Positions 443-53,058 of a stretch of 64,000 nt of DNA are shown here, piece after piece. Origin of the DNA: Bacteroidota bacterium (GTDB taxonomy: Bacteria; Bacteroidota; Bacteroidia; NS11-12g; UBA955); assembly GCA_963169345.1 (NCBI GenBank), contig CAUJCT010000019.1, forward strand, positions 105,366 to 169,365. Reading direction: 5' to 3'. Position numbers and translations under genes: made by a program. The first letter of the stretch is position 1; every line of letters begins with the position of its first letter. The notes under the pieces are model-generated. The model did not search any database. It worked only from the letters and a program-made list of their open reading frames with translations, and was not told the origin of the DNA.

Positions 443-1033
443 TTAAGGCTCAAATTTCCTTAGTTTAAGTTCAAATCTATTATTTGTTCCGCTTGCAATT
501 TTAATTTCTAGGTATTCGTCATAAATGTTCAAAATGTACTGTAACGAAAAGTCTCTGTGAGAAAATCCATGATTTACGGTTTGATTATCACTAAATTCGA
601 TATCCAATAATGGTTGAGAATTATCAATTTCAGACAATTTTATCGATTCATCCACTATATAGCATTTGAGATGTCCTGTATAAAATTGAGGGAAATTCAT
701 TGTTGTGATAATGACAAATTCTTGTCCAAACATAAATAGGTGTAATCTATTATATTTAGAAGAATATTCTGTTTTTATTACATCTTTGAATAGGTCATTA
801 GACTTAACATCTGCTTCTATCTTCTTCAATAATTCAGTACTTGCTAAATAGAGCTTATTAAATCGTCTGCTATAATCTTCAAAATTACGATAAGTACTAG
901 TGTAATTATTCCATTCCATATCAATCATCATCTTCAGTTGGACGTTCATCTTTAGGTCTACCGGATTCGCCTTTTTCAAAACGATCTTTTTCCATTTTTT
1001 GACCTTCATTAATCCGGCGAAGTTCTTCTTCAT
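443..1033 (-). CDS. hypothetical protein, third gene of a tightly coupled 3-gene operon (likely true start at the internal Met pair near 931)
   Basis: 591-nt ORF. Its 5' 113 nt overlaps the upstream small ORF in another frame, and an MM pair sits exactly at the upstream stop (ATGA-type coupling). Confidence 0.45.
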   Translation of the reverse strand: MKKNFAGLMKVKKWKKIVLKKANPVDLKMNVQLKMMIDMEWNNYTSTYRNFEDYSRRFNKLYLASTELLKKIEADVKSNDLFKDVIKTEYSSKYNRLHLFMFGQEFVIITTMNFPQFYTGHLKCYIVDESIKLSEIDNSQPLLDIEFSDNQTVNHGFSHRDFSLQYILNIYDEYLEIKIASGTNNRFELKLRKFEP

Positions 1034-1127
1034 TTCGGAGTTTTACTCTTTCATTTTCACGCCTTTGTTCTTCCCTTTGTCTTTGAAGTTCTTCTTGGCG
1101 TCTTTTGATTTCGTCATTATTGCTCAT
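921..1127 (-). CDS. small highly charged (Glu/Arg-rich, coiled-coil-like) hypothetical protein
   Basis: 68-aa ORF (EELQRQREEQRRENERVKLRNEEELRR). It starts 4 nt after the stop of the upstream 172-aa gene. Compositional bias makes the coding call uncertain. Confidence 0.3.
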   Translation of the reverse strand: MSNNDEIKRRQEELQRQREEQRRENERVKLRNEEELRRINEGQKMEKDRFEKGESGRPKDERPTEDDD

Positions 1128-1131
1128 AAAG

Positions 1132-1650
1132 TTATGAATTTTTGCAAATAAAAATTAGGGTTAATATTAGCCCAGTAATAAGTAAGGATAAAGAAATGAA
1201 ATTGAAAATTATTGTGAAATTGTCTAAAATCTTTGTCTGGCACTTATAGGTTGATTCATTATCAGTATTTACTATTTTACCTCTCTTTTTTCTTATTTGA
1301 AGTCTTGTAAATTTAATTTCTATCTGATTGGAGTAATATGATGTCTGTTGAGATAGAAGGTTGGAAATAATTGATGAAGTAAAGAATATCCATGACAGTT
1401 TGACTAATAAAAATGATACAACAATTGTATCGCTTTTAACAAAATCTTTAATAAATCCAATTGAAAAACCAAGTGCTCCTGTTGATAAGGAAATAATTAA
1501 TATATCAAATCGAGAAATTGCGTAAGATGAGGCTTCTTGACAGTTTTTAATCCATTCTTCTCTACGTTTAATGTAACTTTCAAGTTTAGCCTTTTCTGCG
1601 CCTATTTCACTATTGCTAATATCTTCCATTGAATTCAGTATAATCTTCAA
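1132..1650 (-). CDS. hypothetical membrane protein (3 predicted TM segments), first gene of the operon
   Basis: 172-aa ORF with hydrophobic stretches (ILIISLSTGALGFSIGFI; IVVSFLLVKLSWIFF; IIFNFISLSLLITGLILTLIF). A palindrome lies ~100 bp upstream. Confidence 0.45.
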   Translation of the reverse strand: MKIILNSMEDISNSEIGAEKAKLESYIKRREEWIKNCQEASSYAISRFDILIISLSTGALGFSIGFIKDFVKSDTIVVSFLLVKLSWIFFTSSIISNLLSQQTSYYSNQIEIKFTRLQIRKKRGKIVNTDNESTYKCQTKILDNFTIIFNFISLSLLITGLILTLIFICKNS

Positions 1651-1748: not shown

Positions 1749-1770
1749 AGTTATTTTCAAAAATAACAAA
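1749..1770. promoter_or_regulatory. 22-bp element AGTTATTTTCAAAAATAACAAA containing a perfect 18-bp palindrome GTTATTTTCAAAAATAAC
   Basis: An identical 22-mer recurs at 47537-47558 and a 1-mismatch copy at 47640-47661. It lies upstream of the minus-strand operon that starts at 1650. Confidence 0.4.
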
Positions 1771-1794
1771 TTATCCTATATTTGTGACGATATT

Positions 1795-1995
1795 TAACGT
1801 ACTGCGTTAGTTTTGTCGTCCAGTTGGAAACCGCGAATTTCTGAATAGCCGGACACGATTAGACTTAATGCCTCGCTACTGCGTGGGCTTATAGTTCTAT
1901 TTGTCTGGCTGGCTCTTCGCGGTGCCTCAACTGGCGATAGGCTATAATGTTCCACGCATTTTTTATTAACCGCCTGTTTAGGAACATTAGGGCAC
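1795..1995. other. GC-rich (~50% GC) island in an AT-rich intergenic region, a candidate structured RNA or 5' leader of the TM2 gene
   Basis: Local GC excess with several short complementary segments and no ORF. Located between the palindrome and the ATG at 2012. Confidence 0.25.
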
Positions 1996-2011: not shown

Positions 2012-2671
2012 ATGAAATTATTTAACAGTTTTATTAAAGCATCGCTTCTTTCTCTATCAATCCTACTATTATTGCCATCCTGTACGATTACTAAAATGCG
2101 ATATAGTAATGGTATTAATGTGTCTTTTAATCTACTTGGCAACACACAAGATGGTGAGAGAAAGACAAAGAGACAAAAACACACTAACAAATCTTCAAAG
2201 ACTCAAAATGCAGATTCTTTTGTGAATTTTGATTTTGCAAGAACTCAACTAAAGGATTCAATGATAGGTCATTGTGTTAATGAAGAAAATTACACACTAG
2301 AAACAGTAGGTTATTGTCAAGAACAACAACTAAATAACTACAACCCTAAATTATCCAAAACAAACCAGAGTTTTCTCAAAAAAACACAACCGGTTCCTGT
2401 TATTGAGAATTCCGGAATAAATAATTCTGGGTTAGATGATAAAAATGTTAAGCCTAATAAAACACATTCAGGGAATAGCTGGATAATAGCATTATTACTA
2501 TGTATATTCTTCGGCATAATTGGTGCGCACAGATTCTATTTGGGATATACCGGAATTGGTATAATACAGCTACTGACTTTTGGATTATTGGGAATCTGGA
2601 CATTGATAGATTTCATAAGAATACTTACCGGATCATTAAAGCCTAAAGATGGAGATTATTTTGATTATTGA
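2012..2671 (+). CDS. TM2-domain lipoprotein
   Basis: Lipoprotein-type signal (LLLLPSC). C-terminal TM2-domain pattern (GAHRFYLGYTGIGIIQLLTFGLLGIWTLIDFIRILTG). Confidence 0.7.
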   Translation: MKLFNSFIKASLLSLSILLLLPSCTITKMRYSNGINVSFNLLGNTQDGERKTKRQKHTNKSSKTQNADSFVNFDFARTQLKDSMIGHCVNEENYTLETVGYCQEQQLNNYNPKLSKTNQSFLKKTQPVPVIENSGINNSGLDDKNVKPNKTHSGNSWIIALLLCIFFGIIGAHRFYLGYTGIGIIQLLTFGLLGIWTLIDFIRILTGSLKPKDGDYFDY

Positions 2672-4056
2672 TTTTACAATCTTTATTAATCTCAATATTA
2701 TAAAGATACCTATTTGGTAATTCACATTTCTTACAAGTTTATTCAAATTTAGGCACTCTCAACAACAAGAGCCCATTATATAGTAATATTTATCCGTGAA
2801 TAATATCATAATAGGTATGATATTATTATTAATATCAATAAAGAAGCAATCACTTTTTTGTGATATTTTGTTGATTGCAAACCCATTCAACTCGACAATA
2901 ATCAACATATATGCATTACTAATGATAAATATCTTATTTGCATGATAATACATTTTAGAAAGAGGCAAGCTTTATTCTCAATATCAATATTTATCATCAA
3001 TATAGAGGATATTCAAATATTCTTGACTTCGGTTAACATAGGACTTATTAAAATGTATATATTGGAACTGAATGTTGGAATAATTAATAAAAGTTAACCA
3101 TCAAGTTTACCAATTTGTGGGGTAGTGGCTGTGTAATAGCACGGCTAAATGATAAAGTACTTATTCTTCCAATAATTCAGGTGATATTTGGCTGGGTATT
3201 AATATTGTCAACTCAGATGGGTGTTATCGTATTCATTTAAAATATTGATATTAGATTCACTAATTGGTAACATTTTATGATCCATATATTTATAGATCAC
3301 TTTTTTATCAATATTTTTTTAATATTTGTTAGATTGACATTTCATATAGTTGGAAAATAGTATTTGGAAAGAATTTATCAATGGTATTAGAGGAGTATAT
3401 TAACTATAATCGGCATATTTCTTAGTCTATATCAATTAAATGTAATAACAGGAATTAAATTTAAATATACCATCTGAAGGAACATTGTTATTATTGTAAA
3501 TTCTAAAGCGGAGTTTTTTTGAAATGGGTTTTTTATTCAAATGTATCCAATAAATTGACTCTATATTAGTGAACGTGGCTGCTTTTTTCGACAGGTTGTA
3601 AATATAGTTCATTAATATTCAATACAACTTAATTCATTTTAATCCCTAAAAATATTTAAAGGGATTTAAATATTACACCGATAACTACAAATAAAATTAA
3701 CTTTTGCTTAAAAAATGTGTCATAAATCTATAATTTTAGGTACAATTTTTATACTTCTGGGATAGGTTTACTTCAAATTGCAGAATAAATGCAATATATA
3801 AAACATGCTATGTTGGTATGTAATATAATATTGATTAAATGACAAATCATCGTAAATTTTAAATACTATACATTTGTATAATTTTTACAATTATTGAGAT
3901 TGAATAAAGTTATGTATTCTATAGTTTTAAAATAAATATGAATGTGCTCAAATTGATATTGAACTAATTAAAGTTCTCTTATTTATATAAGTTGTTTATT
4001 TTTAACTTTATTTTCATTTTAGCCGAAAGAGCTTCACTTGAAAGTTTTTATAGATA

Positions 4057-4686
4057 TTATATAAATCCTTTTTTCAAAGCAATTACTGCCAGTTCAACAG
4101 CATTGTGTACCTCGAATTTTAAAAATATTTTCTTCTTTTGAGAGTTAATAGTGTTAACACTGACATTTCGCTGTTCAGCTATTTTATCAGTACTGTAACC
4201 TTTACATAAAAGCTTCAAAATTTCTAATTCAGCTTCTGTCAAAGTGTGAATTTCCGAAATTGTCTTCTGTCTTTCAAGTCTTTCAGATACTGTTTTTGAA
4301 TAGTATTTTTTATTTTCAAGATTGAATTTAATTACATCCTTCCATATTTCCAGGCTTTCTTCTTTTAACAAAATACTATCGACATTTAACTTCTGAAGTT
4401 GCAATAAATCATACATTATGTAATCATAACTGTTAGTTATGATTTTAGAGTTATAATGTTTATTTTTTATATGTTGAATCAATTCTATTCCGGTCATATC
4501 AGGTAAACACATGTCCACAATTAAGATATTATAGTTTGTTTGTCTATTTGCTTCCAATGCTTGAAAGCCATTAGAAGCAACATTAAAATTAATATTTGGA
4601 AAGATTGATTTTAAGTGTTTTTGTAAGCCATGTGAATAGGCAGGATGATCTTCAATTATTAAAATATTAGATTTAATTTGATCCAT
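4057..4686 (-). CDS. two-component response regulator, LuxR/FixJ (NarL) family
   Basis: Receiver domain (LIIEDHP…LIVDMCLPDMTG) plus C-terminal LuxR-type HTH (TEAELEILKLLCKGYSTDKIAEQRNVSVNTINSQKKKIFLKFEV). Confidence 0.8.
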   Translation of the reverse strand: MDQIKSNILIIEDHPAYSHGLQKHLKSIFPNINFNVASNGFQALEANRQTNYNILIVDMCLPDMTGIELIQHIKNKHYNSKIITNSYDYIMYDLLQLQKLNVDSILLKEESLEIWKDVIKFNLENKKYYSKTVSERLERQKTISEIHTLTEAELEILKLLCKGYSTDKIAEQRNVSVNTINSQKKKIFLKFEVHNAVELAVIALKKGFI

Positions 4687-4874: not shown

Positions 4875-6014
4875 ATGAAAATAAAATTAATAATTCTGAT
4901 TACTTTAATTGCTATTTTCCCTTTATCACTTTTTTCTCAACTAAGTATTCAATTTACTTCCATAAATAATTATTTATTTAACACAAAGGAAGCTCTGAAT
5001 TTTATTGTTATAAACAATGGTGTAAAATCCGTTCAAGTTCAGTTTTCAGGAAAGATAGTAAAATCAGATATTGGGAATGTCACCTTATTTAAAACAGAAC
5101 CATTAATTTTAAATGTAGGAGCAAATATCATTACACCTACAAGCATTAGTTTAAATGAAATAAATTATTTAGATAATGATATTAGAGAAATAGAGCAAAA
5201 AACGGGGACATATCCATCAGGTAATTATACAATCTGTATTTGGTCTGCCTGTACTAGCCCTGACTGTGATGGTTCGGGCCCAAGTGCAGGCTCAATAGAA
5301 CAACCGATATGTACTAATATTTCAATTGAAAATCCAACACCATTATTGTTGTCCTATCCATGTAACGAGACAGAGATTGAAGAAACTAAACCAGTTTATA
5401 CTTGGATCCCACCTGCACCTGTTGCGAGTTCGGCGTCTTTAAATTACAAAATGACACTTGTAGAAATATACGATGGTCAGACCAAATCGGACGCTCTAGC
5501 CATCAACAGACCATTAATTGAGTGGACTGGTATTTCCAACCCAATGCTCATGCACCCTTCTGACTTGCCAGCACTTGAAGGAGGAAAGTCATATGCCTGG
5601 CAAGTACAAGCTTTTGTTGGGCAGACTTATTTTGCGACTAGTGAACAGTGGAAGTTTAAATTGAAAAAGGATACCTTGAATTTGAAAAATGTACCTCGAG
5701 CACAATCTTATATTGAAATATCAGGGCAGACCGGGGCTTCCATTTTTTATGCGGTAGGGAAGTTGTATTTGAAAAATGTCGTACGGTTGCAGTCGGGAAT
5801 CATTAAGTTAAATATTATGGATAATTCCGGTTTAGCAGTTGATTTTAGTACCAATGAATTTCACATTAAACCAGGTGACAACCGCCTAATAATTGATCTT
5901 GAATCTGAATTGAAATTTATACATGGCAAAACTTACACATTGACGGGAAAATTGTTAGATGGAACCGTCTTTAAGATCAGATTTATCTACATAGACCCAG
6001 AGAAACTTAATTAA
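4875..6014 (+). CDS. secreted hypothetical protein (signal peptide, Cys-containing)
   Basis: 379-aa ORF with an N-terminal signal-like segment (LIILITLIAIFPLSLFSQ). First gene of the long plus-strand operon. Confidence 0.6.
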   Translation: MKIKLIILITLIAIFPLSLFSQLSIQFTSINNYLFNTKEALNFIVINNGVKSVQVQFSGKIVKSDIGNVTLFKTEPLILNVGANIITPTSISLNEINYLDNDIREIEQKTGTYPSGNYTICIWSACTSPDCDGSGPSAGSIEQPICTNISIENPTPLLLSYPCNETEIEETKPVYTWIPPAPVASSASLNYKMTLVEIYDGQTKSDALAINRPLIEWTGISNPMLMHPSDLPALEGGKSYAWQVQAFVGQTYFATSEQWKFKLKKDTLNLKNVPRAQSYIEISGQTGASIFYAVGKLYLKNVVRLQSGIIKLNIMDNSGLAVDFSTNEFHIKPGDNRLIIDLESELKFIHGKTYTLTGKLLDGTVFKIRFIYIDPEKLN

Positions 6015-7114: not shown

Positions 7115-10100
7115 ATGAAACCTAGTTTGTTTAAAACTATAAGAAAAAGGGGAAAATTCATCGCGTGTTTTTTCGCACTCAATCTACTGGTAGAAGTGGT
7201 GGCTCCGTTACAGGCTTACGCGTTGACAGGAGGGCCCAGCCAGCCGGAAGTCACCAGTTTTGAACCGGTGGGAACTACGGAAATGGTGGATTTGTTTAGC
7301 GGTGACTTCAGTTATAACATTCCCTTGTTTGATATTGGCGGCTATCCGGTAAATATCAGTTACCATGGCGGTATATCGATGGATCAGGAGGCGTCTTGGG
7401 TGGGATTGGGCTGGAATATTAACCCAGGAGCTATCAATAGGGGAATGAGAGGAGTGCCGGATGATTTTATTGGTGATGAGGTAAAGAAAACCATGAATAT
7501 CAAAAAAAATGAAACATGGGCAACAAATTTTAACTCTGACGGTGAAATATTTGGATTTACCTCTAGCAAAATAAAATTGGGAGGGAAAACTTTTAATACT
7601 AAAAATTCTTACAATCAAGGCAAAAGGATGAATAAACTTAGCAAATTTAATTTTGGTTTTGGAATAGTTTACAATACTTATAAAGGGATTGGTTATTCTT
7701 TGGATTTGAAATTTGACATTAATAAAACAAGTTATTTTTCTAGGGAGGAATTCAATGAAAACATGGATTTATTAGATAATTTTAAAAAAATTAAAGATGA
7801 CCCTGATTTAGATTTAATTAATAGGGAAGGTTCTAAGGATTATTATCAAGCTTTGGATGCAAATTATAAGAGCACAACTGCACAAAAGGTTGTTAAAAAA
7901 CAATCAAGTTTAAATGCAAATATTAATCTTTCAGCTTCATCGAATGAGGGAGCTAAGATTAACTTGACAATGTCTAATAACTTTCAAGATTTGATGGATG
8001 ATAGAACCAATTTATACAGAACAATAACACCATCAATTGGGTTAGGATATAATAGTTTGCTGGGAGTAAATTCATTTGATGTTGGTTTGTCAAAGCGGTA
8101 TAGCTGGCAAGTGGAGGTAGAAAAGGGAGCATATTATTCAGGCTCTATAAATAGGAGTGTTAATTCGTATATTCCAATAGGTTCATATAGTTATACGCCT
8201 AACATTCACTTTCCTACATTAAGTACATCGCAATCTTATAACGCAACAGTCGGCTTTGATGCATTCGGAGGACACCCAAATATGAGATTAAGCGGCTTCT
8301 ACAATTCTGAGGAGCTAAAGGATTCAAATATTATATATAATGCATTTGGATATTTGCAGGAACAAGAAGTGTTCTGGCATAGAGGAAAAAACTATGTGTT
8401 AATGGATTTTAACAGGGAGAAAGAATCGAAAGGAAATAAAAGCTCAACGCACTTACCTTTATCAAATCATACTTACGATATTTTCATGGTAACTGGCCAG
8501 GGCAATGGTGGCATTTATCGCCCTCATAGAAAGACAATTGGTTTGTTGTGTGACCCATACACTGAAAATAGTAATAAAAAAACTGGAATGAATGACTTCG
8601 GAATTGAGTTAGGATTTGGGGCCAATTTTCATTGGGGATTCAATTACAAAAACAAGGTGCAGAATTCATCTACTGGACTTTGGTATAATAATAATCAAAG
8701 AAATTTTTCAATAAAGTTTAACGAAGATGCTGATTTTTTTAATTCAAGTTTATCTGTTGATTTTTCAAAAAAGAATAATGTACTGCTTAAGGACAAGGAC
8801 AATGAATTAGTAGAGCTATTAAATTATAGAATGGAAGATGGAACTTTGAATAAGAGAAACAACCACTTTTACTTCAAATCTGCAGGAGAGCAAACTCCGT
8901 CTGACAATGATTTAGGAGATAATTGGGGCGGAAAGTTTCCTGTTTCGTTAAGAATAGGAAAGACAGAAGGACATGAGAGAAACTTTAGATTTGGCAAGGT
9001 TACAAACAAATTGAATGAGTCGACTCATGAAGTAAAGGGCCACTCAACATGGAACACCCCGCGTAACAGCGCAATTGAGTATTTATCCGCGGAAGAAGCG
9101 AGTCATGGGGGGATAGGCATGGAACCATTTATTGTAAGCTACCCACAAAATTATTGGACGTATTATATCAAGAGTCAAAATCTCCCGACCGTTGAGGTTG
9201 AAGAACGGTACAATGGAGCAAATGGCGCCAAGGCACATCATATTTCCGAGATCATCACTTATGGAGGTGATGGCATGCGGTATGTGTATGGTTTGCCCGC
9301 TTATAACAAAAAGCAACATGAGGTTAATTTTGCAGTTTCAAAGGACATTGTGGGGGGTGATTTATCTACTCGTTATGAGGATTGGGCCAGAGGGCTTGTT
9401 AAATACGAGCCAGGCCAAGATAATTCGACTAGAAATACCAGAGGGGCGGATAATTTCTTTATGAGCACTGAAATGCCTCCTTATGCACATTCATATCTCT
9501 TGACAGGAGTTCTTTCACCAGATTACTCAGATTTAACTGGTGATGGCATTACAGATGATGACTATGGCAGCGCGGTAAGATTCAACTATTACAAAGTGCC
9601 AGGATCCTATAAGTGGAGGACACCTTATGAAAAGGATTCAGCAAATTTGGATCTAGGGTATATTACTGATTTCAGCGACAATAAAGGTTCGTATGTGTAT
9701 GGAGAAAAGGAGATTTGGTACGTACAATCCATGGAGTCAAAGACGCATGTAGCTGAATTTAAATTATCAAGACGATTTGATGGTCATGGAGTAGCTTCAG
9801 AAAATGGTGGACTGGATACCTCAGAGTCTAATACGCTAATGAAATTGGATTCTATAGTGATATATAGCAAACTGGACATTCTTGCCAATGGCAGGAACGC
9901 AGTGCCTGTAAAGACCATAGTGTTTAAGTACGATTACAGTCTGTGTGCCGGTATACCTAATAATTCTGTAGGACAGGGTAAACTTACTTTAAAAAGCATT
10001 TATTTTACATACGGAAACAGTGGAAAGGGTGTTTTGAACCCTTATCAATTTGAATACTCCAATTTCAACCCGGCATACAGCCATGTGCATTTCGATAAAT

Positions 10101-27973: not shown

Positions 27974-30370
27974 ATGCGCATACTCTTTACATTTGCATGT
28001 CTCATTTATGGAAACATAACCTATACACAGGAAATCTTATACTCATTTGACAGTTGCAAGAATGATTTCGGAGCAAATTCATCAAGTTTTGAATATAATT
28101 TCTCAGGTTGTCAGAACAAAAATAGTCAATCTTCATCAGGTAAGACTAGACTAGATCTTAGGTCATTCACCGACAGCCTTAAACTGAAAAATTCGGTTAA
28201 AACAAGCACTGATAATAGCAATGACTATGGAAACAGGATTTTTAACTTTCCGAGACTCACTTACGATTGGTTGAAAAATGAACTTCCCAAGGGCAATGAT
28301 CTTCTAAAGTTTTCTATGAACATGCGCTCAGAAAACTTTGGTACCACATCTCAAAATCCAATGATTAGAAGTGAGCTTATGTACAGTAGATTGTATTTGA
28401 GCCCTACTTTCACTGTTTTGGGACTTCCCTTTACTTCTAATCTGTTTTTTACCACCGAAGCCAACAATACCTATAAAAATAATTTCTTTTCATTCAGGTT
28501 GGATGTGAATGCTTTGAGAAGAATAGCTCAGGAAAGACTCAGAAAGGAAGTTGAGCAAGCAAAAAAGCTGGATAGGTCTAGGCAGCTAGAACTCAATAAG
28601 CAGGCACTTGAAACCAAAAAATACCAGCAGGAGCTTGATAAGGTGGAGTCGGAAATGAATGAATACAAGCAGTGGAATTCGCAGATTCAGAATCAAGCTC
28701 AATTAAAGTCCAAGGCGTATTTGGATAAAGAAAGAGCCCAACTCGAAGAGCAACTTAAAACAGCTTCAGACGAGCAGAAAGAGCAGATGATAGCAGCGTA
28801 CAATCAAAAATCTGATTCGGTACAAAATGCTCTGAGGTCTCAACTTGAAGACTCTGCGGCAAAGTTAAAAGGCACCATGCCCAATTTGGATACATCCAAA
28901 CTCAACAGAATAAACAGGCTCAAAACAAAGATGGAACAACTCAATCAGAGGGCTAAAGAAATTGAGAGTTTAAGACAAAAGGACACATTGGGACTGTCGG
29001 AAAAAGCAGAAGGGTTGCGACATCCTGAGAAATTGAAATCCATGACCCAAGGTCAGTTACCCGGAAAAGGACTAATGAACCGGTTCTTGTCGGTAGACAG
29101 ACTCGGGGTAGGTTTAATTGCACCTATGTATTCAGAGTTCACTTTGAGTGCTGCATCTGTTAAAGGTTTGGACATAGGTGTTTCAAAAACCAATTGGTAT
29201 TACGATATCAGTCTGGGAAGAATGACCAAACAGTTTACCGGCCCATTTTCATCTGTTCAACCTGAATATGACCGAAACATGGCTATAGCCAGAATTGGAC
29301 TTGGAGAAAGAAACAATGCGCATTTAGCTGTAGAATATTTCAGTGCCTTTGACACAAAAGTGACAGACAGCATGTCTCCAATGGTAAACAATGGGGTACT
29401 TGCATTGGAATTTAAATATGTTTTCTTAAAGCATTTAACAGTAGATGGTGATTTGGCTCAAAGTAATTACAAAGAAAAATTCAACAGTCTAAATATTTCT
29501 TCGTCTTCTAATTCAAGCAATTCGATATTCAATATCAGAGACAGCAGAGCATACCGGTTAAAGGCTACACAAGAGGCTGGCAAAAACACAAAGCTGCAGG
29601 TTGAAGCCAGGCAAGTAGGAGCAGCCTTCAGGTCATTGGGTAACCCCTTTTTAAGAAGAAATTTTAGAGAAATCGATGCCAGACTGGAACAAAGTTTCTA
29701 TAAAAAGCAGATACTCTTGCAAGCCAATTACAAAGAGATGCGAGATAATGTTCTGGAATTGAATCAGGCCACCAACAGACTGAAAGGTTGGGGTATCAAA
29801 CTACAAACCGCATTTGAAAAATGGCCTAACCTGACTTTAAGTCACAGCCCATACCAGCAAGGCAATAACCATCCGGATAGCTTATACAGAACCAACAATC
29901 AGTTTTCTATTTCCATGGCAATGCTCACCTACAAAAAGCGATTCAAGGGTCTTAACTGGAATATGATGGCTTGTGCCACCAGGTCAGCCATGGAGATATA
30001 CGGCAGAGGTCCTGTTGACTATAGAATGCTGACGATAACCAATATGGTTCAATTAGGCTTAAGACACAACATCATGTTGAATTACATGTCCAACACAACA
30101 CTGCCTGGAGTAGATTCATTGAACTCAAATTCCATACAATTCAATTATATTTACCTGGCTAAAAAAGGATTTACTATTGGCACAATAGGAGAACATACAA
30201 TTTACAAAAATCAGGCATTCAGATCAGGGGGCGGATTAACAGCGAGTGCCAATTTAATTAAGAATCTTTCATTGTCGGCTCTAGTTCGCTACGATAAAAT
30301 TGATGGATTATGGCGATTAGAGAATCAGGATGTTTGGACCGGAAGGCTTGTGCTTTTATGGAGTTGGTGA
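27974..30370 (+). CDS. outer-membrane beta-barrel-like protein with long Q/E/K-rich coiled-coil insert
   Basis: 798 aa with signal peptide, ~160-aa coiled-coil segment (residues ~180-340) and C-terminal aromatic-terminated strand (…LVLLWSW). Confidence 0.5.
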   Translation: MRILFTFACLIYGNITYTQEILYSFDSCKNDFGANSSSFEYNFSGCQNKNSQSSSGKTRLDLRSFTDSLKLKNSVKTSTDNSNDYGNRIFNFPRLTYDWLKNELPKGNDLLKFSMNMRSENFGTTSQNPMIRSELMYSRLYLSPTFTVLGLPFTSNLFFTTEANNTYKNNFFSFRLDVNALRRIAQERLRKEVEQAKKLDRSRQLELNKQALETKKYQQELDKVESEMNEYKQWNSQIQNQAQLKSKAYLDKERAQLEEQLKTASDEQKEQMIAAYNQKSDSVQNALRSQLEDSAAKLKGTMPNLDTSKLNRINRLKTKMEQLNQRAKEIESLRQKDTLGLSEKAEGLRHPEKLKSMTQGQLPGKGLMNRFLSVDRLGVGLIAPMYSEFTLSAASVKGLDIGVSKTNWYYDISLGRMTKQFTGPFSSVQPEYDRNMAIARIGLGERNNAHLAVEYFSAFDTKVTDSMSPMVNNGVLALEFKYVFLKHLTVDGDLAQSNYKEKFNSLNISSSSNSSNSIFNIRDSRAYRLKATQEAGKNTKLQVEARQVGAAFRSLGNPFLRRNFREIDARLEQSFYKKQILLQANYKEMRDNVLELNQATNRLKGWGIKLQTAFEKWPNLTLSHSPYQQGNNHPDSLYRTNNQFSISMAMLTYKKRFKGLNWNMMACATRSAMEIYGRGPVDYRMLTITNMVQLGLRHNIMLNYMSNTTLPGVDSLNSNSIQFNYIYLAKKGFTIGTIGEHTIYKNQAFRSGGGLTASANLIKNLSLSALVRYDKIDGLWRLENQDVWTGRLVLLWSW

Positions 30371-42103: not shown

Positions 42104-43621
42104 TTAAGACTGACCAGTACTCCATTCATGTTTAGCAAAAGGCTTTCCTGGTCGCAAGATTAGAAAAATCTGATTGCAAAATGCTGTATCATTTCCCAAT
42201 ATTGGCTTTGGATCTTTAATTTCAATTTTCTTAACAAATGAGTCCTTGTATCCTGAATAAAAAAAGTAAGCCTTTACAGTATAATAACCAGCCTTAGTAT
42301 AGATATGCGTGGCACCATACTTGTTTTTTGATGAATTAAGAATTCCAGAAATGGTATCACCAAAATCCCAAACTGTTGAGTCTAGGTTCTCAGTTTTTGA
42401 CAAGGTAAATTGCGTTGTGTCGTTGTTGCAATTGCGCCAATAGTTAAAGATTCGTTTAATGAAAAAAGACTGAGTGAATGCTGGCAGTCCGAGCTGGGTC
42501 TTACCCTTGGCTAAGGTAATTTGACTCCTTACAAAGTTTACATTGGCAGCATTAGTATCCGGTTTGTTGATGCATGACAAGTATGTCACAATGAACTGGG
42601 ACATATAAATTTTATTATCTGGACCGAGCTGAAGACTTCCAAAAGTGCCGTTTATTACGCTATCAATTACAACCCTAGAATTTCTAAATGCGGTGCTAGA
42701 AGTGGCCAGCGCATTATATTGAACTAGCTTCGCCTGTCCATGATCCGTCAAGTACAAGTATTTACCATTCGGAGAAAACTCGGCACCGTAACCATATCGA
42801 AATGGGAATTTCCAAACATTACTGACTTGGCCTGTAGCGCTATTGAAATTACCAATTACTGCTGTATCCTTGTTGTAGTTCACTGCAACGAACTTTTTGC
42901 CGTTTCCCGAAACCTTTAAGGCTCCTATCATCGAATAACCACCGTTGATATAAAGTCCAGTCCTAGAGTATACTGGCGTAGTGTTTACACCCAATGAATT
43001 CACTTTGTATGCCGCTATGGAATCAGATTTGTATTTGTATGCAAGTATCCAAAATTCCCTACCGTTAGCATGACTAACGGCAGTCAGTTTCTCACAAACA
43101 GGCGTCAAAAGTTTCGTGTTTTTGGAACTCACAACAACATCACCTCTCCCAGAATCCAATCTCATATCAACGATACTGTATGTCATACCGTCATCACGCC
43201 CAAGATCCTGAACACAAAATATGAAATACAGGCTTGGACTATCAGGATATGGCACGATGATGGCGGATTGAGTAGAAGAAGCATTTCCTAATAAGTCGTA
43301 TCCATTAGGCATTTTCTTATGAATGCTGTCATACACATTTACACCGTCTGTATAAAAAAGCAATCTGCCAGTGCCAGTGCTTATTGAGGCACAACCTTCA
43401 TAAGTTTTCATGGCGCTGTTTGTCATGGAGGTAAGAGTCCCAGAATTGAAACTTATTGCCCCATATTCGCCAAAATACCAATTGTTGGCCTCTTTTTGAG
43501 CTTGTAAATTCACAGCGAATGCTAAAGCTAAAAAAAACACAAAATACTTTGAATAGCCAAACTCACACTTCTTATTATCAAGTGATTGAATTAACAATTG
43601 TATTTTCCATAAACACCGCAT
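42104..43621 (-). CDS. N-terminal part (signal peptide plus beta-rich domain) of the same split T9SS protein
   Basis: 505-aa ORF with a signal peptide (KYFVFFLALAFAVNLQAQ). Its stop TAA (42104-42106) abuts the GTG of the downstream ORF in frame. Confidence 0.6.
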   Translation of the reverse strand: MRCLWKIQLLIQSLDNKKCEFGYSKYFVFFLALAFAVNLQAQKEANNWYFGEYGAISFNSGTLTSMTNSAMKTYEGCASISTGTGRLLFYTDGVNVYDSIHKKMPNGYDLLGNASSTQSAIIVPYPDSPSLYFIFCVQDLGRDDGMTYSIVDMRLDSGRGDVVVSSKNTKLLTPVCEKLTAVSHANGREFWILAYKYKSDSIAAYKVNSLGVNTTPVYSRTGLYINGGYSMIGALKVSGNGKKFVAVNYNKDTAVIGNFNSATGQVSNVWKFPFRYGYGAEFSPNGKYLYLTDHGQAKLVQYNALATSSTAFRNSRVVIDSVINGTFGSLQLGPDNKIYMSQFIVTYLSCINKPDTNAANVNFVRSQITLAKGKTQLGLPAFTQSFFIKRIFNYWRNCNNDTTQFTLSKTENLDSTVWDFGDTISGILNSSKNKYGATHIYTKAGYYTVKAYFFYSGYKDSFVKKIEIKDPKPILGNDTAFCNQIFLILRPGKPFAKHEWSTGQS

Positions 43622-43775: not shown

Positions 43776-46700
43776 TTATTTAAATTGCGTTTTATCTATT
43801 GCAATAATGCATGAAGATATCATTTCATCAAGTGTATTTGAAAATTGACAGTTCTCAATTAGCCATTCAATTTGCTTACTTGATATTGTGACGTTTTTGT
43901 GCGAAAGGTCTTTAAGTGTGTAAATTTTTCTAACTCTTGATTTTTGGCCTTTTAATTTATCTAATTCTGGTATAAGTATTTCTAGCCAAAGATCTGCGAA
44001 TTGATCTAAGTCGACATAAAGATCATCTTCAGTTTCAGGATTAAATAAATTTAATAATTTTTCGGCATTTAATTTGTCTTTCCCTGAGAGTGAATTAACT
44101 TTTAAATTGTGATTTAATATATTTTCTCCTTGATTTAATGCTCTTCTTTTTTTCCATGGCAACAATTGCTTCTCTTGACTTCGTAGTTTTCTAATTATGT
44201 CCTTTAGCTTTTGTGAAGTATCAATTTCTTTCCAATTTCGTTGAACAATGGTTGTTTTTGACAAGTATGATTTAAGTAAATAAGTAATGTCAGAAAAATC
44301 TGTGTAACCTTTGTTATTTTCATCAATCAATAACCATTTTGGACTTTTTCGGGTACTTCCTCTAAAGGAAAAGAAACACCAATTTTTGTCGGTTTCAATA
44401 AAACTGATAGCTGTCTTAACGGTTGAATCAACATCTTTGTAAAGATCATAAATAGCATGGTCTATTAGTGCGCTTTCCCCTTCTATAAGGCCATATAAAT
44501 CTTGTGTGCTATCCCTTACGCCTTCCCATTCATAATCACTACTTGAATATTCTGTGTAAGCTTCAATAATATTTTGAGTACTCAAACTATTTTTGAGATA
44601 TTTCTCATAAATGACTTTAGGTATTCCTACATTGTTTCCAATTAAATCTTCTGTAAGCAATAAAGTGTCTATTATCCTTCTGTCGCCGTTTAAGGAGAAT
44701 TCTTCAGAATCATTTGGCCACATTACTGTAATTTCATTATGTTCGCAATCCATCCTTTCAATACGGCCAATACGCTGTTCAATAACCCTAAGTACGCTTG
44801 GCATGTCTAGTAAGATAAGACAGCTGGAATCTTGAAGATTAATCCCTTCAGACATAGCATCAGAACAAAAAGCAATCAACTTTTCTTTTGAATGATTTTC
44901 TAGTGAAAACAGCTTCATTACTTCGGTTCTGTCTTTGCTGTTATGTCCTGCTGCAACAATGGTTTTAAATTGGGGATTTCTTTCTTGAAGTAACTTGTTT
45001 AAGTAATCAAGTGTGATTACTGTTGAATCAAAAGCTAATATCTTGTTATGCTCTTCTAAAGCCTTAATAATGGTATCGATCTTACTAATTTCTCGATTTT
45101 TACTTAATTGATTTACAAGTCTTCCAATTTTTTCATATATTTCAATCTCTTTGTCACATGTAGTTTTATACAATGTCTCATCATATAACCAATGATAACT
45201 TTCTTGTAAAAGTCTTTTATCTATAAACATTTTAGGCACTATGTTTTTAAGTTTTTTTACCTTTCCAATCATATCACCTGATAAGTTTTTAGTAGAGTTT
45301 AGTCCAAATTCTTGATTAGCGGCATTTGTCCCATATAAGTATTCATGAATGGCACATTGGGAAGATCTCAATTTTACCCTAACCATATAGGCTGCTAATG
45401 CTGTTGCTGAAGTAAACCTTTGGTTAATATAATTAACCATTTCTTCATCTCCTTTAATAAAATTTGGGATTTTGATTCTTTGCAAATAATGAATTCCTTT
45501 CAATTTGGATGTCAATGTTGAAATTTGCATCCCAATTTTTTTGTCAGAGACTGTCTCATTAGTTTCATAAACGATTGAATTTGTTTTCGGGTACTTACAA
45601 ATATGCCCTAACCTATTAGTATATAATTTTGGAGATCGTTCAATCATTTTATTCAGTTCTTTTTTCGTTCGACGAACTATAAACTGATTCACATATTTTT
45701 TAAGTTGCTCAAGGTGCTGTTTGTTAATGCCCTTTTTTCTTTTCTTCCTTAACTCAAAATAAGTTTTTAAATCGTCGTCACTAAGGTTATCAATATCAAG
45801 AAGTTCAATTAATCTCAAAATATCATCTATTTTTTTATTGATGGGGGTTGCGGTTGACAAAATTACATTACATGAACCTTTTGGAATAATTGCTTTACTT
45901 CTTTTAGAATGAGGATGAAGGTAATTATGAGCTTCATCAATAACCAATATATCAGAACTATGGATAGCCTTTTGGATATTCCTTTGATTTTTATCCAAGC
46001 CAAGACTTAATTTCCCCATTGATTCAATTTTATTATAAAGCACAAAATGTTCCTGTTCTCTTTCCCAATTTTCAATAACAGTTTTAGGACAAATTATTAA
46101 CGCATTTGAACGATCCTTTCTACCATTTTCCCATAGCCAATGAAACAATGTATAAGCAAGAGCCGTAGCAAATTTAGTTTTCCCACTTCCTGTTGGGTCA
46201 GCTATTAGTACTCGTCCTTGATCTTGGATAATTTTCATTGCTCGCGCTATTCCCATTTTTTGAGAAGGCCACAATTTATGGGTTATTAAAGCTTGATAAA
46301 GAACAGGATAATCTTTCATCCATTTGCTTTCTAAAATTTCAGAAATCGCTCTGGCTAAAGCCTCTTGCCAGGTTGCTTCTTTGAATAATTTACTAAATAA
46401 TTCAATCAGGTGGTAGTTATAATCATCGGATATAGTATAATAATATTCAGCTATTCGTTTAATATCTGAATATTGCTCTTTTTCCTTTTTAGACGAAGAA
46501 CTTTGAATTCTAATGTTTGCTTCTGTTTGTAAAATAGTTCCTGATTTGCTAAAATTGGATGAACCCAATATGGCTGTTTCGTCACCTATATATATTTTTG
46601 CATGGAGTTTATCCCTTACTTTAAATTCTATACAATTATTATTGATTTTCTCAATAATATTAAGAACAGAACCACATAGTTTTAAACTAACATTTTGCTT

Positions 46701-47009
46701 TACCCAATAATTTTTTATCTCGGTTGGAAGTGAATAGTGAGGAAGTCGAGCGCTCACTCTCTCATCAGGATCAAAGCCTATTACAATTCGAAGCTTTTTT
46801 AACTTTGGATAATCATTAACTCCAAAAACATCTATTAAATTGGATAAGGAAGTAAATCCTGTAAGTATTAAATAATTCTCTGAATTTTGAATGTCCTTTA
46901 AAAGCAAATCTTTGACTCTTCGATCTTGTTCCTTAAGATTTAAAGGAAAATCTTCTTGATTTGGCAAGTCAAGTTTATAGTTAAAGTCGAATAGATTAGG
47001 TGTTTTCAT
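43776..47009 (-). CDS. PLD-family (HKD) nuclease domain fused to an SF2 (DEAH-type) helicase with ~320-aa C-terminal unknown domain, a candidate single-protein defence gene
   Basis: HKD motif HAKIYIGDETAILGSSNFS (res ~136-154). Helicase motif I LIADPTGSGKT, Ia LIICPKT, II VIDEAHNY, III ILSTATP, V FCSDAMSEGINLQ, VI QRIGRIER. Confidence 0.85.
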   Translation of the reverse strand: MKTPNLFDFNYKLDLPNQEDFPLNLKEQDRRVKDLLLKDIQNSENYLILTGFTSLSNLIDVFGVNDYPKLKKLRIVIGFDPDERVSARLPHYSLPTEIKNYWVKQNVSLKLCGSVLNIIEKINNNCIEFKVRDKLHAKIYIGDETAILGSSNFSKSGTILQTEANIRIQSSSSKKEKEQYSDIKRIAEYYYTISDDYNYHLIELFSKLFKEATWQEALARAISEILESKWMKDYPVLYQALITHKLWPSQKMGIARAMKIIQDQGRVLIADPTGSGKTKFATALAYTLFHWLWENGRKDRSNALIICPKTVIENWEREQEHFVLYNKIESMGKLSLGLDKNQRNIQKAIHSSDILVIDEAHNYLHPHSKRSKAIIPKGSCNVILSTATPINKKIDDILRLIELLDIDNLSDDDLKTYFELRKKRKKGINKQHLEQLKKYVNQFIVRRTKKELNKMIERSPKLYTNRLGHICKYPKTNSIVYETNETVSDKKIGMQISTLTSKLKGIHYLQRIKIPNFIKGDEEMVNYINQRFTSATALAAYMVRVKLRSSQCAIHEYLYGTNAANQEFGLNSTKNLSGDMIGKVKKLKNIVPKMFIDKRLLQESYHWLYDETLYKTTCDKEIEIYEKIGRLVNQLSKNREISKIDTIIKALEEHNKILAFDSTVITLDYLNKLLQERNPQFKTIVAAGHNSKDRTEVMKLFSLENHSKEKLIAFCSDAMSEGINLQDSSCLILLDMPSVLRVIEQRIGRIERMDCEHNEITVMWPNDSEEFSLNGDRRIIDTLLLTEDLIGNNVGIPKVIYEKYLKNSLSTQNIIEAYTEYSSSDYEWEGVRDSTQDLYGLIEGESALIDHAIYDLYKDVDSTVKTAISFIETDKNWCFFSFRGSTRKSPKWLLIDENNKGYTDFSDITYLLKSYLSKTTIVQRNWKEIDTSQKLKDIIRKLRSQEKQLLPWKKRRALNQGENILNHNLKVNSLSGKDKLNAEKLLNLFNPETEDDLYVDLDQFADLWLEILIPELDKLKGQKSRVRKIYTLKDLSHKNVTISSKQIEWLIENCQFSNTLDEMISSCIIAIDKTQFK

Positions 47010-47209: not shown

Positions 47210-47476
47210 TTAAAAAGACTTTCGCTTGTATTTGTCAATAAAAAGCTTGACGGACTTACTGTTGTATAGAATCAATTTTCTTACCGGTTGAGAAAATTCA
47301 ATCTCTCCTTGGTTTCTTAACTTTTGGATGGTAGACTTGCTTTTTATATTTAAGATAGACATTAGTTCTTTTTCAGTTATCCATTCTTTTTCTATCTTCA
47401 AATTTTCTTTGACTTTAAATATTATTTCATCGATTAATTTATAGAATGCTTCTGTTTCAATTATAATGACTTCCAT
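47210..47476 (-). CDS. excisionase/AlpA-like helix-turn-helix DNA-binding protein (mobile-element regulator)
   Basis: 88 aa. C-terminal …ITEKELMSILNIKSKSTIQKLRNQGEIEF… resembles Bacteroidota Xis-type HTH proteins. It lies upstream of and co-oriented with the PLD-helicase. Confidence 0.65.
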   Translation of the reverse strand: MEVIIIETEAFYKLIDEIIFKVKENLKIEKEWITEKELMSILNIKSKSTIQKLRNQGEIEFSQPVRKLILYNSKSVKLFIDKYKRKSF

Positions 47477-47536
47477 ATAAATGCAAAGTTATATCTAAAA
47501 TGACAAAAAAACAACTTAAGTTGCAGATAATTAGGT

Positions 47537-47558
47537 AGTTATTTTCAAAAATAACAAA
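47537..47558. promoter_or_regulatory. second copy of AGTTATTTTCAAAAATAACAAA palindrome-containing element
   Basis: Identical 22-mer to 1749-1770. Located ~60 bp upstream of the HTH gene start in the divergent region with 47890(+). Confidence 0.4.
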
Positions 47559-47639
47559 CTAATTTATTGTATTATTATATCAATAAATTGGTAAATAAAT
47601 ACTATTTTAGTGATATAGAAGAGTTTATCAAATTTTCTT

Positions 47640-47661
47640 AGTTATTTTTAAAAATAACAAC
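47640..47661. promoter_or_regulatory. third, 1-mismatch copy (AGTTATTTTTAAAAATAACAAC), still a perfect 18-bp palindrome
   Basis: Located 110 bp from the previous copy in the same intergenic region. Confidence 0.35.
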
Positions 47662-51116: not shown

Positions 51117-52340
51117 TTACCTCAAACTCCCAAACACTTTGTCTGAGGCTTCGTCCACAGCCTCGTCTCTAATACTCGAAAGGTAAATTTGGGTAGTTTT
51201 AATATCGCTGTGCCCTAACATTTTACTAACTACTGAAATATCTATACCGGAGTCTCTGGCTAATGATGCAAATGAATGACGAATGGTATTGGTTGACATA
51301 TATTCAAAATCAATCCCAAGATGAGTCGCCAATTTCTTTAAATCTCTGTTATAATTTCTGATAGCCCCTCTCGAAATAGAATATGCCCTCTCTAAGCTCA
51401 TATCTTTATTTAGGAATGGTAAAATGTAATCTTCACTAGTTTTGTCCTCTGAAAAATGTTTAATAAGCGTTTCAAGTGGCTCCGAAATGCCGACATTATA
51501 CAACTTAGCCGTTTTTCGCCGATTATAGTAAATTCTATCATTTGTAATATCCTTGAGTTTTAGAAAACATATATCGGTGAAGCTCGCTCCTCTCATATAA
51601 AATGAGAACAGGAACACCAATCTAGTGCGCTCCATTGTTTTGTTAGTCAGTTTAGCTGACTTGATCTTTTCCAAAGCCTCCTTTGGCAAAGCTCTTTTAG
51701 CGGTATCTTGTCTTCTTACCTGATATTGGTCGAATGGATAGGCATCTTTGGGAAGTATTTTGTCAGAAATTGCTCTGTTCACCAATGCCCTCAATGCTCT
51801 AAGTTTTACCCCCAAACCATTTACACTATTACCTTTGGCTAGATACTTTTGTTCCATCTTTTTAATCCAAAAAGGAGTGATGTGTTCTAAGGGAATATCA
51901 GCAGTGCCATTGTAATTAATTACCCACTGCAGAAAGTCGTTGTATGCTTTTGCATTCCCGAACCTTCCTGCACCCTTCATTTCTTCAATAACAGTCTTTG
52001 TGTATTCAGCTATGCTGACGGCAATTGATTCATTCAAAATTCTAGTTTTAATCTCAGAAATCCCCATTCTTTTTATATCTCCAGATTCATCTAAGGCAGA
52101 CAATATGCTAAAAGCCTCAGCACTTCTGGTTTTTATCTTGGCATTTTCAGCCCCAATATTCTTGATTTTTTTACAGGTAGAGCGTATAGTTTGGCTGCTT
52201 TCATTCCATTCGCTTGGTTCTAATGTAACTCCCAAAGGAATTGAGGTACTTTTACGGTTTGCTATTATTCGCAGTATTAAAGGATAACCGTCCCTTTTTC
52301 TGTTTCTTTCATCTAAAATAACCCTGACACTATAAGACAT
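51117..52340 (-). CDS. site-specific tyrosine recombinase (Bacteroidota phage-integrase family)
   Basis: 407 aa. C-terminal catalytic region …RHSFASLARDSGIDISVVSKMLGHSDIKTTQIYLS… (R…HxxR…Y). Confidence 0.85.
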   Translation of the reverse strand: MSYSVRVILDERNRKRDGYPLILRIIANRKSTSIPLGVTLEPSEWNESSQTIRSTCKKIKNIGAENAKIKTRSAEAFSILSALDESGDIKRMGISEIKTRILNESIAVSIAEYTKTVIEEMKGAGRFGNAKAYNDFLQWVINYNGTADIPLEHITPFWIKKMEQKYLAKGNSVNGLGVKLRALRALVNRAISDKILPKDAYPFDQYQVRRQDTAKRALPKEALEKIKSAKLTNKTMERTRLVFLFSFYMRGASFTDICFLKLKDITNDRIYYNRRKTAKLYNVGISEPLETLIKHFSEDKTSEDYILPFLNKDMSLERAYSISRGAIRNYNRDLKKLATHLGIDFEYMSTNTIRHSFASLARDSGIDISVVSKMLGHSDIKTTQIYLSSIRDEAVDEASDKVFGSLR

Positions 52341-52373: not shown

Positions 52374-52473
52374 AAATTTTGTTTCAATATATATTAATTT
52401 GAATTTATTTTTTGTTTATATATATGAATATCAATTATATAATGTAATTCATGTATCATAATAAACTAGTATT

Positions 52474-52522
52474 CCTCAGATTTCTAATCTGTGGGTCAGG
52501 GGTTCGAATCCCTTCGGGATCA
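52474..52522 (+). tRNA. partial tRNA gene: 3' ~49 nt (anticodon arm, variable loop, T-arm, 3' acceptor strand) of a tRNA-Arg(TCT)-like gene, a probable att-site remnant
   Basis: tcaga-TTTCTAA-tctgt anticodon arm (U33, anticodon TCT, A37). Variable loop gggtc. T-arm aGGGG-TTCGAAT-CCCtt. 3' strand cgggatc + a. No matching 5' acceptor strand or D-arm upstream, only AT-rich DNA. Confidence 0.5.
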
Positions 52523-52530
52523 CTAGCATC

Positions 52531-52560
52531 AAAGCCTCCACGTATGTGGAGGCTTTTTTT
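52531..52560 (+). terminator. Rho-independent terminator (AAAGCCTCCACgtatGTGGAGGCTTTTTTT)
   Basis: Perfect 11-bp stem, 4-nt loop, 7 T's directly after the tRNA fragment. Confidence 0.7.
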
Positions 52561-52750
52561 ATGCCCTTAAAAAATCCCCAAGCGTCATCAGACCTTGAGG
52601 GATTTTTGAAAGGGCATAAAAAATAAGTCTTGCATCAGCAGGACTTTGATGCTTTTGCAGGACCTTTTTCTGGGATCATGAAATAATCCCTAGGCCCCAA
52701 GCGTCGCCAGAACTTGAGGGATTTTTGAAGAGGTATAAAAAATAAGTATT
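52561..52750. repeat. two tandem copies (~85% identical, ~55-65 nt) of a hairpin-forming element
   Basis: Copy 1 at 52576-52628 and copy 2 at 52695-52747 share ccccaagcgtc..cagaac/cttgagggatttttgaa.gg.ataaaaaataagt. Copy 1 is embedded in a long imperfect inverted repeat ATGCCCTTaaaaaatcccCAAG…CTTGagggatttttgAAAGGGCAT. Confidence 0.5.
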
Positions 52751-53058
52751 ACATTTTCATCGGGTCATTTTGTGAATTTGAATTACTGGAATCAATACCC
52801 TTACATTCTAATTGGCCGATTTTTGAATTCTGAACGGACTTCTTCCTAATCCATTCACTCATTTTTAACACTATATTTGTCTAACATTTATTATAATGGA
52901 ACGGTAAAAAAGACGATTATTATTACAGTTACAGTACTTTGTATAATAGTAGTTCGTTTTATTACTAATGACGATACAGGGGATAATTGTTAGGTCAAAC
53001 TTGGTTGAATGTATTGTGCTTGTAATTGGGGTGTTTTAAGGTTTAATGAAATTATTTT

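Follow-up and report, generated by a model that had tools for sequence, protein, structure and literature searches.

A window of 64,000 nucleotides from a Bacteroidota genome (GCA_963169345.1, contig CAUJCT010000019.1, positions 105,366 to 169,365; "the window" hereafter) carries a 22-bp A/T-rich element, AGTTATTTTCAAAAATAACAAA, at two distant places, and a close variant of it beside the second, within an integrative island that encodes a small helix-turn-helix (HTH) protein of the HTH_17 family. The locus raises the question of what reads this element, and why one copy stands so far from the others. The answer that we favour, with only modest confidence and from sequence comparison, is that the motif is an 18-bp operator read by a dimer, likeliest the island's own HTH_17 protein, with a pair of sites for autoregulation and a chromosomal site on the promoter of a structured RNA. 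The features on which this answer turns are the following:

1750..1767, third operator-like site, GTTATTTT-CA-AAAATAAC, centre ∼31 bp upstream of the predicted RNA start
47210..47476, minus strand, HTH_17 gene, 88 amino acids (aa), ATG at 47476
47484..47491, minus strand, −7 box of the HTH gene, TAACTTTG, 7 nt before the ATG, a perfect match to the Bacteroidota consensus TAnnTTTG
47538..47555, proximal operator, GTTATTTT-CA-AAAATAAC, centre ∼68 bp upstream of the predicted HTH transcript start
47641..47658, distal operator, GTTATTTT-TA-AAAATAAC, 103 bp start-to-start from the proximal operator
from 47890, plus strand, 180-aa open reading frame (ORF)

The 22-mer is exact on the plus strand at 1749-1770 (copy 1) and at 47537-47558 (copy 2), as a preliminary description of this DNA had reported, and the variant AGTTATTTTTAAAAATAACAAC lies at 47640-47661 (copy 3). 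Copies 1 and 2 are direct repeats that match past the arms, with 24 of 25 nt identical once extended by a repeat finder. The core had been called a perfect 18-bp palindrome, which is true of its 8-bp arms and not of the CA-centred core that was quoted, as CA is not self-complementary; the sole perfect 18-bp palindrome of the three is the TA-centred copy 3. The latter was thought to differ from the 22-mer by a single central change that kept the palindrome, but two positions differ, and the central one creates the perfect symmetry. When up to 3 mismatches were allowed, just these three sites were found in the window, where 0.02 matches are expected by chance, and the observed count was reached in none of 100 dinucleotide shuffles, in keeping with the early view that the repeat is unlikely to be accidental. 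Half-sites were not enriched (12 versus 8.5 expected), and 6 of the 12 belong to the three full sites. In single-stranded form, the motif folds into a 7-bp stem made entirely of A/T pairs with a 4-nt loop (−3.5 kcal/mol, DNA parameters), in place of the 2-nt loop first supposed; a stable G+C-rich stem and a U-run, sought in the motif as the marks of a terminator, were both absent, and in this respect the preliminary description was right to set terminators aside.

Homologues of the HTH protein are rare (6 clusters among 5.8 billion proteins). DNA was obtained for three homologue lineages (L021/L022, L023/L024 and L025) and scanned for GTTATTTT-NN-AAAATAAC, and two of the three were found to carry the same paired arrangement as the window:

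Window, HTH identity 100%, sites at 47538 and 47641, spacing 103 bp, arms perfect
L021/L022, HTH identity 85%, sites at 9818 (distal) and 9920 (proximal), spacing 102 bp, arms perfect
L023/L024, HTH identity 70%, sites at 5650 (distal) and 5750 (proximal), spacing 100 bp, arms perfect

The start of the proximal site lies 76-81 bp from the HTH ATG, nearly the same in all three loci, and the two operators are ∼10 helical turns apart (100-103 bp). The centre dinucleotide varies among sites (TA, CA, TG, AC) while the arms remain constant, as expected for a dimer that contacts the arms only. In a three-way alignment of the upstream regions, both operators were invariant over the T+8+8 columns (34 in all), versus ∼27% of the other columns. 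In three independent loci, then, site and regulator gene are found together and the site is more conserved than its surroundings, as is looked for in an autoregulatory operator. One homologue cluster, P0002, has an N-terminal extension that reads ...FVIFKNN..., as encoded by TTTGTTATTTTCAAAAATAAC; it belongs to the L021 lineage, with an upstream region nearly identical to that of L021, and so is not independent.

Searches with blastn and tblastx found that the HTH gene and its upstream region are all that the three islands share, their cargo and neighbours being as follows:

Window island, cargo PLD-helicase and genes without an assigned role, next to a 505-aa surface protein gene (42104-43621)
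L021 island, cargo ThiF/E2/Multi_ubiq, M78 peptidase and HNH, next to an orthologue of window gene 27974-30370
L023 island, cargo Cap4 nuclease and genes without an assigned role, next to an orthologue of the response regulator 4057-4686

Given that cargo and insertion sites differ and the HTH alone is shared, the operator pair belongs to the HTH gene and not to the PLD-helicase, to whose module the preliminary description had tied it. That description had also placed the two copies in the divergent region upstream of the HTH gene, and there they are, in a 413-bp gap between the HTH gene (minus strand) and the 180-aa ORF (plus strand); the PLD-helicase, which had been counted as lying behind the same region, is a separate gene downstream of the HTH gene. 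Its proposal of a site for a dimeric protein, possibly the island HTH, has gained ground, in that the motif appears to behave as such a site and is tied to the HTH gene by perfect-arm pairs at the 85% and 70% homologues. The operator reading is well supported by comparison and the link to the HTH gene is strong. On these alignments, we take regulator and operator pair to be the part that stays the same in a small group of integrative islands whose defence-like cargo is exchanged.

Among the genes carried by the sister islands are a set for ubiquitin-like conjugation (ThiF / Prok-E2 / Multi_ubiq) together with an M78 peptidase, at L021 4906-7251, and a Cap4-nuclease gene, at L023 380-1513. Such contents fit exchangeable defence cassettes behind one regulatory module.

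The motif was also sought in larger sequence collections. When 185,579 species representatives were searched with a 21-mer that covers the three copies, 14 unrelated genomes had one hit each, which is about the number estimated for chance, and the three Bacteroidota hits inspected were inside coding sequence or isolated. The 16-base core returned more than 120 chance-type hits in viral contigs and was uninformative. The dual-operator pattern was present in 2 metagenome contigs and in 0 viral contigs, and neither metagenome hit had the HTH: one (L146) lies beside a Fic gene and the other (L147) is an unrelated repeat array. So few dual-site hits point to a rare module and not to a generic repeat. 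The L147 array itself (∼120-520) is a dense series of GGTTATTTT..AAAATAACC units interleaved with ATAACCGGTTATGG palindromes, with only the A/T core in common with our motif. Relatives of the HTH in viral contigs amounted to one distant match (L156, 34% identity), in a phage early operon with its own, different operators, and this was not informative.

The sites lie in a consistent position with respect to the predicted HTH promoter. The −7 boxes of the homologues (TAATTTTG in L021 and TATTTTTG in L023) stand 8 nt before the ATG, and the −7 motif has a frequency of 0.00073 per position in the window. A box only 7-8 nt before the ATG implies that the HTH mRNA would be leaderless or nearly so. 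Relative to the start predicted in this way, the operator centres are at ∼−68 (about −67 to −73) and ∼−170, upstream of the core promoter, a geometry that would better suit upstream activation, or cooperative binding and looping, than simple occlusion.

The candidate binder matched Pfam HTH_17 (PF12728) over residues 32-82 with 30.0 bits against a cutoff of 27, and PF12728 is annotated on all six of the homologue clusters. An AlphaFold2 model built from a six-sequence alignment (pLDDT, the predicted local distance difference test score, 78) has a helix at residues 8-25, a winged HTH at 31-72 and a C-terminal helix at 73-87. Foldseek comparison of the model with the PDB returned Pukovnik Xis (4j2n; root-mean-square deviation (rmsd) 1.3 Å, TM-score 0.77-0.79 normalised to target), BldC (6ama/6amk; rmsd 1.5-1.6 Å) and 2kvv, a putative excisionase of Klebsiella; the domain is small and the E-values weak (0.14-0.25), with 12-16% sequence identity to the matches. 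The predicted structure is accordingly of the Xis-type winged-helix fold, and the additional helices at its N and C termini could form the dimer interface that binding to a palindrome demands. The most economical reading of the comparisons is that the palindrome is bound, most likely, by the HTH.

Copy 1 stands before a different promoter, on the plus strand, with these features:

1777..1784, plus strand, −7 box of the RNA, TATATTTG, perfect, 9 nt downstream of copy 1
1786..1965, plus strand, structured RNA of ∼175-180 nt, GC-rich, ending in a U-run
2012..2671, plus strand, TM2-domain lipoprotein gene (Pfam TM2, 71 bits), syntenic with the RNA in all three genomes (window, L157 and L160)

The −7 box is identical in L157 and reads TATCTTCG in L160. 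Copy 1 spans ∼−39 to −22 of the predicted RNA promoter and thereby covers its −33 region, which is a repressor-type position. The RNA, whose core sequence reads for example CCAGTTGGAAACCGCGAATTTCT, has a folding z-score of −5.1 versus shuffles and a GC content of 47% versus ∼30% around it, and has counterparts at L157 138-320 and L160 143-326. Its conservation compares with that of the neighbouring protein as follows:

L157, TM2 protein identity 90%, RNA identity 96.9%
L160, TM2 protein identity 43%, RNA identity 88.6% overall, core almost invariant

Conservation so much higher than that of the adjacent coding sequence identifies the stretch as a functional RNA. Its consensus fold is rod-like, with 55 pairs and with the 5' and 3' ends paired, drawn from three near-identical sequences that contain no covariation. 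Comparison with Rfam 15 (including 6S, 6S-Flavo, SRP, RNase P, tmRNA and riboswitches) gave nothing at gathering scores, and queries of 500 nt and 196 nt gave only noise-level matches at E-values up to 10; no copy of the RNA turned up in collections of phage, plasmid and viral sequences. It probably represents a conserved small RNA or leader of Bacteroidota that is as yet undescribed, and the TM2 gene may be co-transcribed with it by read-through.

At the same place in L157 the site reads GTTATTTT-AA-AAAACAAC, which keeps 15 of 16 arm positions. Homology between the window and L157 starts exactly at the left edge of the palindrome and runs rightwards, with the 100 nt to the left unrelated, whereas identity is 88.5% in the non-coding DNA on the right-hand side of the TM2 gene. 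A homology edge at the palindrome assigns copy 1 to the plus-strand RNA/TM2 promoter, and we read it as the outermost conserved element of that promoter, with the minus-strand operon 1650->443 in variable DNA that abuts it. L160 has at this position a degenerate A/T quasi-palindrome (12/18). Of the three genomes, the one known to carry the HTH island is alone in having a perfect site at the RNA promoter, and copy 1 of the window is closer to the island's proximal operator (24/25 nt) than to its own L157 orthologue; this likeness is weak evidence for tuning or gene conversion.

The preliminary description had instead assigned copy 1 to the minus-strand operon, placing it ∼100 bp upstream of the operon start. 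The distance is right for the TTG at 1650 (99 bp) and too short for the ATG at 1629 (120 bp), at which the database gene call P0007 (165 aa) starts. The operon has a perfect −7 box of its own at 1655-1648, 18 nt before the ATG, and the palindrome is then at ∼−115. None of eight homologous loci (L148-L155, four distinct lineages) has a site with up to 3 mismatches upstream of the operon, and local alignment of the copy 1 flank with the HTH upstream regions, outside the palindrome, gave scores within those of shuffles. On this comparison, copy 1 probably does not control the operon. Common control of the operon and the island, as once proposed, thus finds no echo in the homologous loci or in the unrelated left flank of L157, and the wider suggestion of a functional link between the two has to contend with the fact that nothing beyond the palindrome is common to both loci; such a link is possible, but without support.

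Three further candidates at copy 1 were tried and rejected. Copy 1 and its flank as a duplicated HTH promoter, suggested by a shared spacing to the −7 box and a similar ATGGAAG start, gave Smith-Waterman alignments outside the palindrome that were no better than those of shuffles. Copy 1 might also have been left behind by an HTH island at the response-regulator hot spot that L023 uses, but no HTH remnant or further homology was found. A degenerate second site at 1657-1671 (GTTATT-GAAAATAAA) is short by 3 bp and was taken as chance.

The operon itself contains a conserved two-gene cassette, made up of a 165-aa protein with two transmembrane segments and a ∼66-aa Glu/Arg-rich peptide (window 443-1629, minus strand), with a variable third gene. 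Several Bacteroidota have the cassette, among them Tenacibaculum mesophilum CP050861, in varying neighbourhoods; that of L148 is defence-like, with a dynamin-like DUF4365 gene and SLFN/AlbA_2. Searches of Pfam, PADLOC and NCBIfam with the cassette gave no match, and it is a candidate toxin-antitoxin or abortive-infection module. L148 also has a palindrome with 1 mismatch, GTTATTAT-AT-AAAATAAC, at 2826-2843, 37 bp past the stop of the 803-aa orthologue of 27974-30370; at this spot L021 has the HTH island and L148 has an island with the two-transmembrane cassette. About 0.05 such sites are expected by chance over all related loci examined, by a rough estimate.

Several other explanations have to be weighed against an operator of the HTH. 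That the copies are due to chance, or are a functionless generic A/T-rich repeat, might be argued from the matches in more than 120 viral contigs (16-base pattern) and 14 unrelated genomes (21-mer); it is contradicted by the expectation of 0.02 in the window, by the retention of the pair with the HTH in independent loci despite diverged flanks, and by a dual-site pattern with only 2 unrelated metagenome hits and 0 viral ones, so that we regard it as very improbable and effectively refuted by the comparative data. The TG-centred form of the palindrome contains TATTTTTG, a perfect Bacteroidota −7 box, which copies 1 and 2 carry on the minus strand (1756-1763 and 47544-47551), the sense strand of the 165-aa and HTH genes, and the element could on that account be a start signal for minus-strand genes. 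In the relatives, however, the centres on the HTH-sense strand are TA, AC or CA; these abolish the −7 match or put it on the other strand, and both arms remain intact. A conserved −7 box with a perfect match precedes the ATG of every HTH gene by 7-8 nt in any case, and a one-sided box leaves two conserved symmetric arms unexplained. We hold a promoter element to be quite improbable. Slightly less so, but still improbable, is a set of recombination or excision sites for the island's tyrosine integrase or excisionase, with the 24/25-nt repeat and the homology breakpoint as marks of past recombination. Copies 1 and 2 are indeed direct repeats matching past the arms, copy 1 is the exact point at which homology between the window and L157 breaks, the fold of the HTH is that of an excisionase, and L148 has its 1-mismatch palindrome where L021 has an island. 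But the pair is internal to the islands, upstream of the HTH gene, and its distance from the junction is ∼350-600 bp (L021 and L023) or ∼3.8 kb (the window). The crossover region of tyrosine recombinases is 6-8 bp, for which a 2-bp centre is too short. The junction of the window island is marked by a tRNA-like fragment (52463-52522) and not by the palindrome, the empty site after window gene 27974-30370 has no palindrome, and what separates copies 1 and 2 is 46 kb of ordinary chromosome that has orthologues in relatives.

A host regulator is an unlikely reader of the sites, if a more serious candidate than these. Its native target would be the conserved RNA promoter, the island HTH promoters would have acquired the site and so coupled the island to host physiology, and the HTH would have other targets. 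This would agree with the chromosomal position of copy 1 and the persistence of 15 of 16 arm positions in the same promoter of L157, with the relatedness of the three island-bearing hosts, which could share such a factor, and with the fact that palindromes are unusual for excisionase-type domains. Set against it are the inheritance of the site pair with the HTH gene across insertion sites and cargo, the absence of further copies from the 64-kb window, where half-sites are near expectation, and the case of L160, which keeps the RNA without the palindrome, so that the site is not obligatory in the RNA promoter there.

Several points weigh against the HTH as reader of an autoregulatory pair. Three independent HTH modules were available (the window, L021 and L023 lineages), and the more distant homologue of L025, which is 53% identical and lies beside a Fic gene, is without the operator motif; for covariation of operator and protein, this is a single case. 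The recognition helix of L025 differs from that of the window HTH at just 3 positions. The usual targets of excisionase-type domains, which bind them as monomers or in head-to-tail arrays, are direct repeats (BldC, D29 Gp36; PMC12266134); the repeats found here are inverted, which is atypical. The operator centres at −68 and −170 are off the core promoter and do not fix the sign of regulation, the proximal position shifts by ∼5 bp between loci, and the transcription starts are deduced from consensus boxes. L157 retains its 15/16 site in a genome that may lack the HTH, and a conserved host-encoded factor could read the same sites. At L025, ∼185-265, two different palindromes, TTGTTGCA-N4-TGCAACAA, and a half-site are located ∼500 bp upstream of the ATG, and these may be a diverged operator set.

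Under the model that we nonetheless prefer, that of an operator for the island HTH, two invariant 8-bp arms, GTTATTTT and AAAATAAC, around a free 2-bp centre would be read by a dimeric DNA-binding protein, and the operator pair and the HTH gene would move jointly, at the margin of integrative defence islands that differ in cargo. The HTH would autoregulate through the pair, either by activation from the upstream sites or by cooperative binding or looping, and it may also set the expression of neighbouring island genes. The third operator is chromosomal, and protein bound at copy 1 would be expected to repress the RNA and TM2 promoter. A bolder version, in which the island regulator directly controls a near-invariant host RNA of ∼175 nt through an operator installed by selection or gene conversion, and in which the RNA is a new, widely conserved Bacteroidota family, is put forward as speculative and doubtful. 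If it were true, the arrival or activation of an island would rewire the expression of a conserved host small RNA.

The window as a whole is A/T-rich (∼30% GC) and Bacteroidota-like, and encodes giant PKD/CHU_C surface proteins. The remaining island genes of note are:

43776-47009, PLD + SNF2 helicase, 1077 aa, downstream of the HTH gene after a 200-bp gap
51117-52340, IntDOT-type integrase with domains Arm-DNA-bind_5, SAM_5 and Phage_integrase

In the defence and NCBI family libraries, the 1077-aa protein had just generic matches to DpdE, DrmD and PLD-helicase models, and the HTH and the 165-, 68- and 196-aa proteins had none. The tRNA-like 3' fragment (52463-52522, plus strand) scored 21.8 bits with RF00005, which is below threshold, and has a possible Arg-UCU anticodon arm and a GGTTCGAATCC T-loop. 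It lies ∼125 bp beyond the integrase start, is followed by a terminator hairpin (52528-52560), and is probably the attachment-site (att) remnant of the window island; a search of the 64-kb window for the island's other att revealed neither an intact tRNA nor a repeat of the fragment. Just outside the fragment is a 60-nt direct repeat (52576-52635 and 52695-52754; 87% identical, 119 bp apart), each copy of which has an internal inverted repeat, TTTTTTATGCCC...GGGCATAAAAAA, and there is an inverted repeat at 52555-52579 / 52599-52623. In related genomes (L021, L148, L023), the insertion hot spots for islands are the 3' flanks of 27974-30370 (798 aa) and of the NarL-type response regulator 4057-4686. 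The window has no island after 27974-30370, and its response-regulator hot spot is occupied by an A/T-rich stretch of 1.3 kb without an ORF (2700-4057), of which the first 312 nt are 88.5% conserved in L157.

The kind of element described here, an autoregulated regulator on a mobile element, is ordinary; what is unusual is a palindrome for an excisionase-type domain, its possible reach onto a host small-RNA promoter, and the RNA itself. Among the small "excisionase family" genes on Bacteroidota mobile elements, those of the HTH_17 type are the commonest, and to the best of our knowledge regulatory roles of such genes are known only for CTnDOT. The comparison yields a concrete proposed operator for an uncharacterised HTH_17 subgroup, and a regulator and operator pair that appear constant across defence islands that swap their cargo, be it a PLD-helicase, a ubiquitin-like system or a Cap4 nuclease. 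It also suggests that a conserved small RNA of the host may come under the control of an island regulator, and exposes an RNA that is extremely conserved and apparently undescribed.

Among known systems, the Xis2c and Xis2d proteins of the Bacteroides conjugative transposon CTnDOT, which are excision proteins and also transcription factors, are likewise small excisionase-type HTH proteins on a Bacteroidota integrative element, and they recognise specific sequences upstream of element promoters and regulate transcription (PMC3809561), a precedent within the phylum. For CTnDOT RteC, upstream binding at ∼−50 to −70 is on record (PMC3809561). The present case is unlike that of Xis2c and Xis2d in its phased palindrome pair before the regulator's own gene, in the extra N-terminal helix of the HTH and in having one site on a chromosomal RNA promoter outside the element; binding and a role in excision are putative here. 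BldC of Streptomyces and Gp36 of D29, a Xis/MerR-like repressor that binds direct repeats, share the winged-helix fold and show an excisionase-type domain at work as a transcription regulator (PMC12266134), but they occupy direct repeats as head-to-tail oligomers, whereas the inverted repeat here would imply a symmetric dimer. In layout, the module resembles those of lambda CI/Cro and Xre type, in which palindromic operators recur in the divergent control region before a small regulator gene, and the integral-turn spacing suggests cooperativity or looping; unlike them, it has an HTH_17 winged helix, operators upstream of the core promoter, and no evident repressor/antirepressor pair. Lastly, members of the MerR family have the same type of winged helix and bind palindromes as dimers, and copy 1 likewise lies within a promoter, over the −33 region and the upstream half of the spacer; the island HTH differs from them in having no long C-terminal coiled coil or effector domain, and the sites at its own promoter lie far upstream and not in the spacer.

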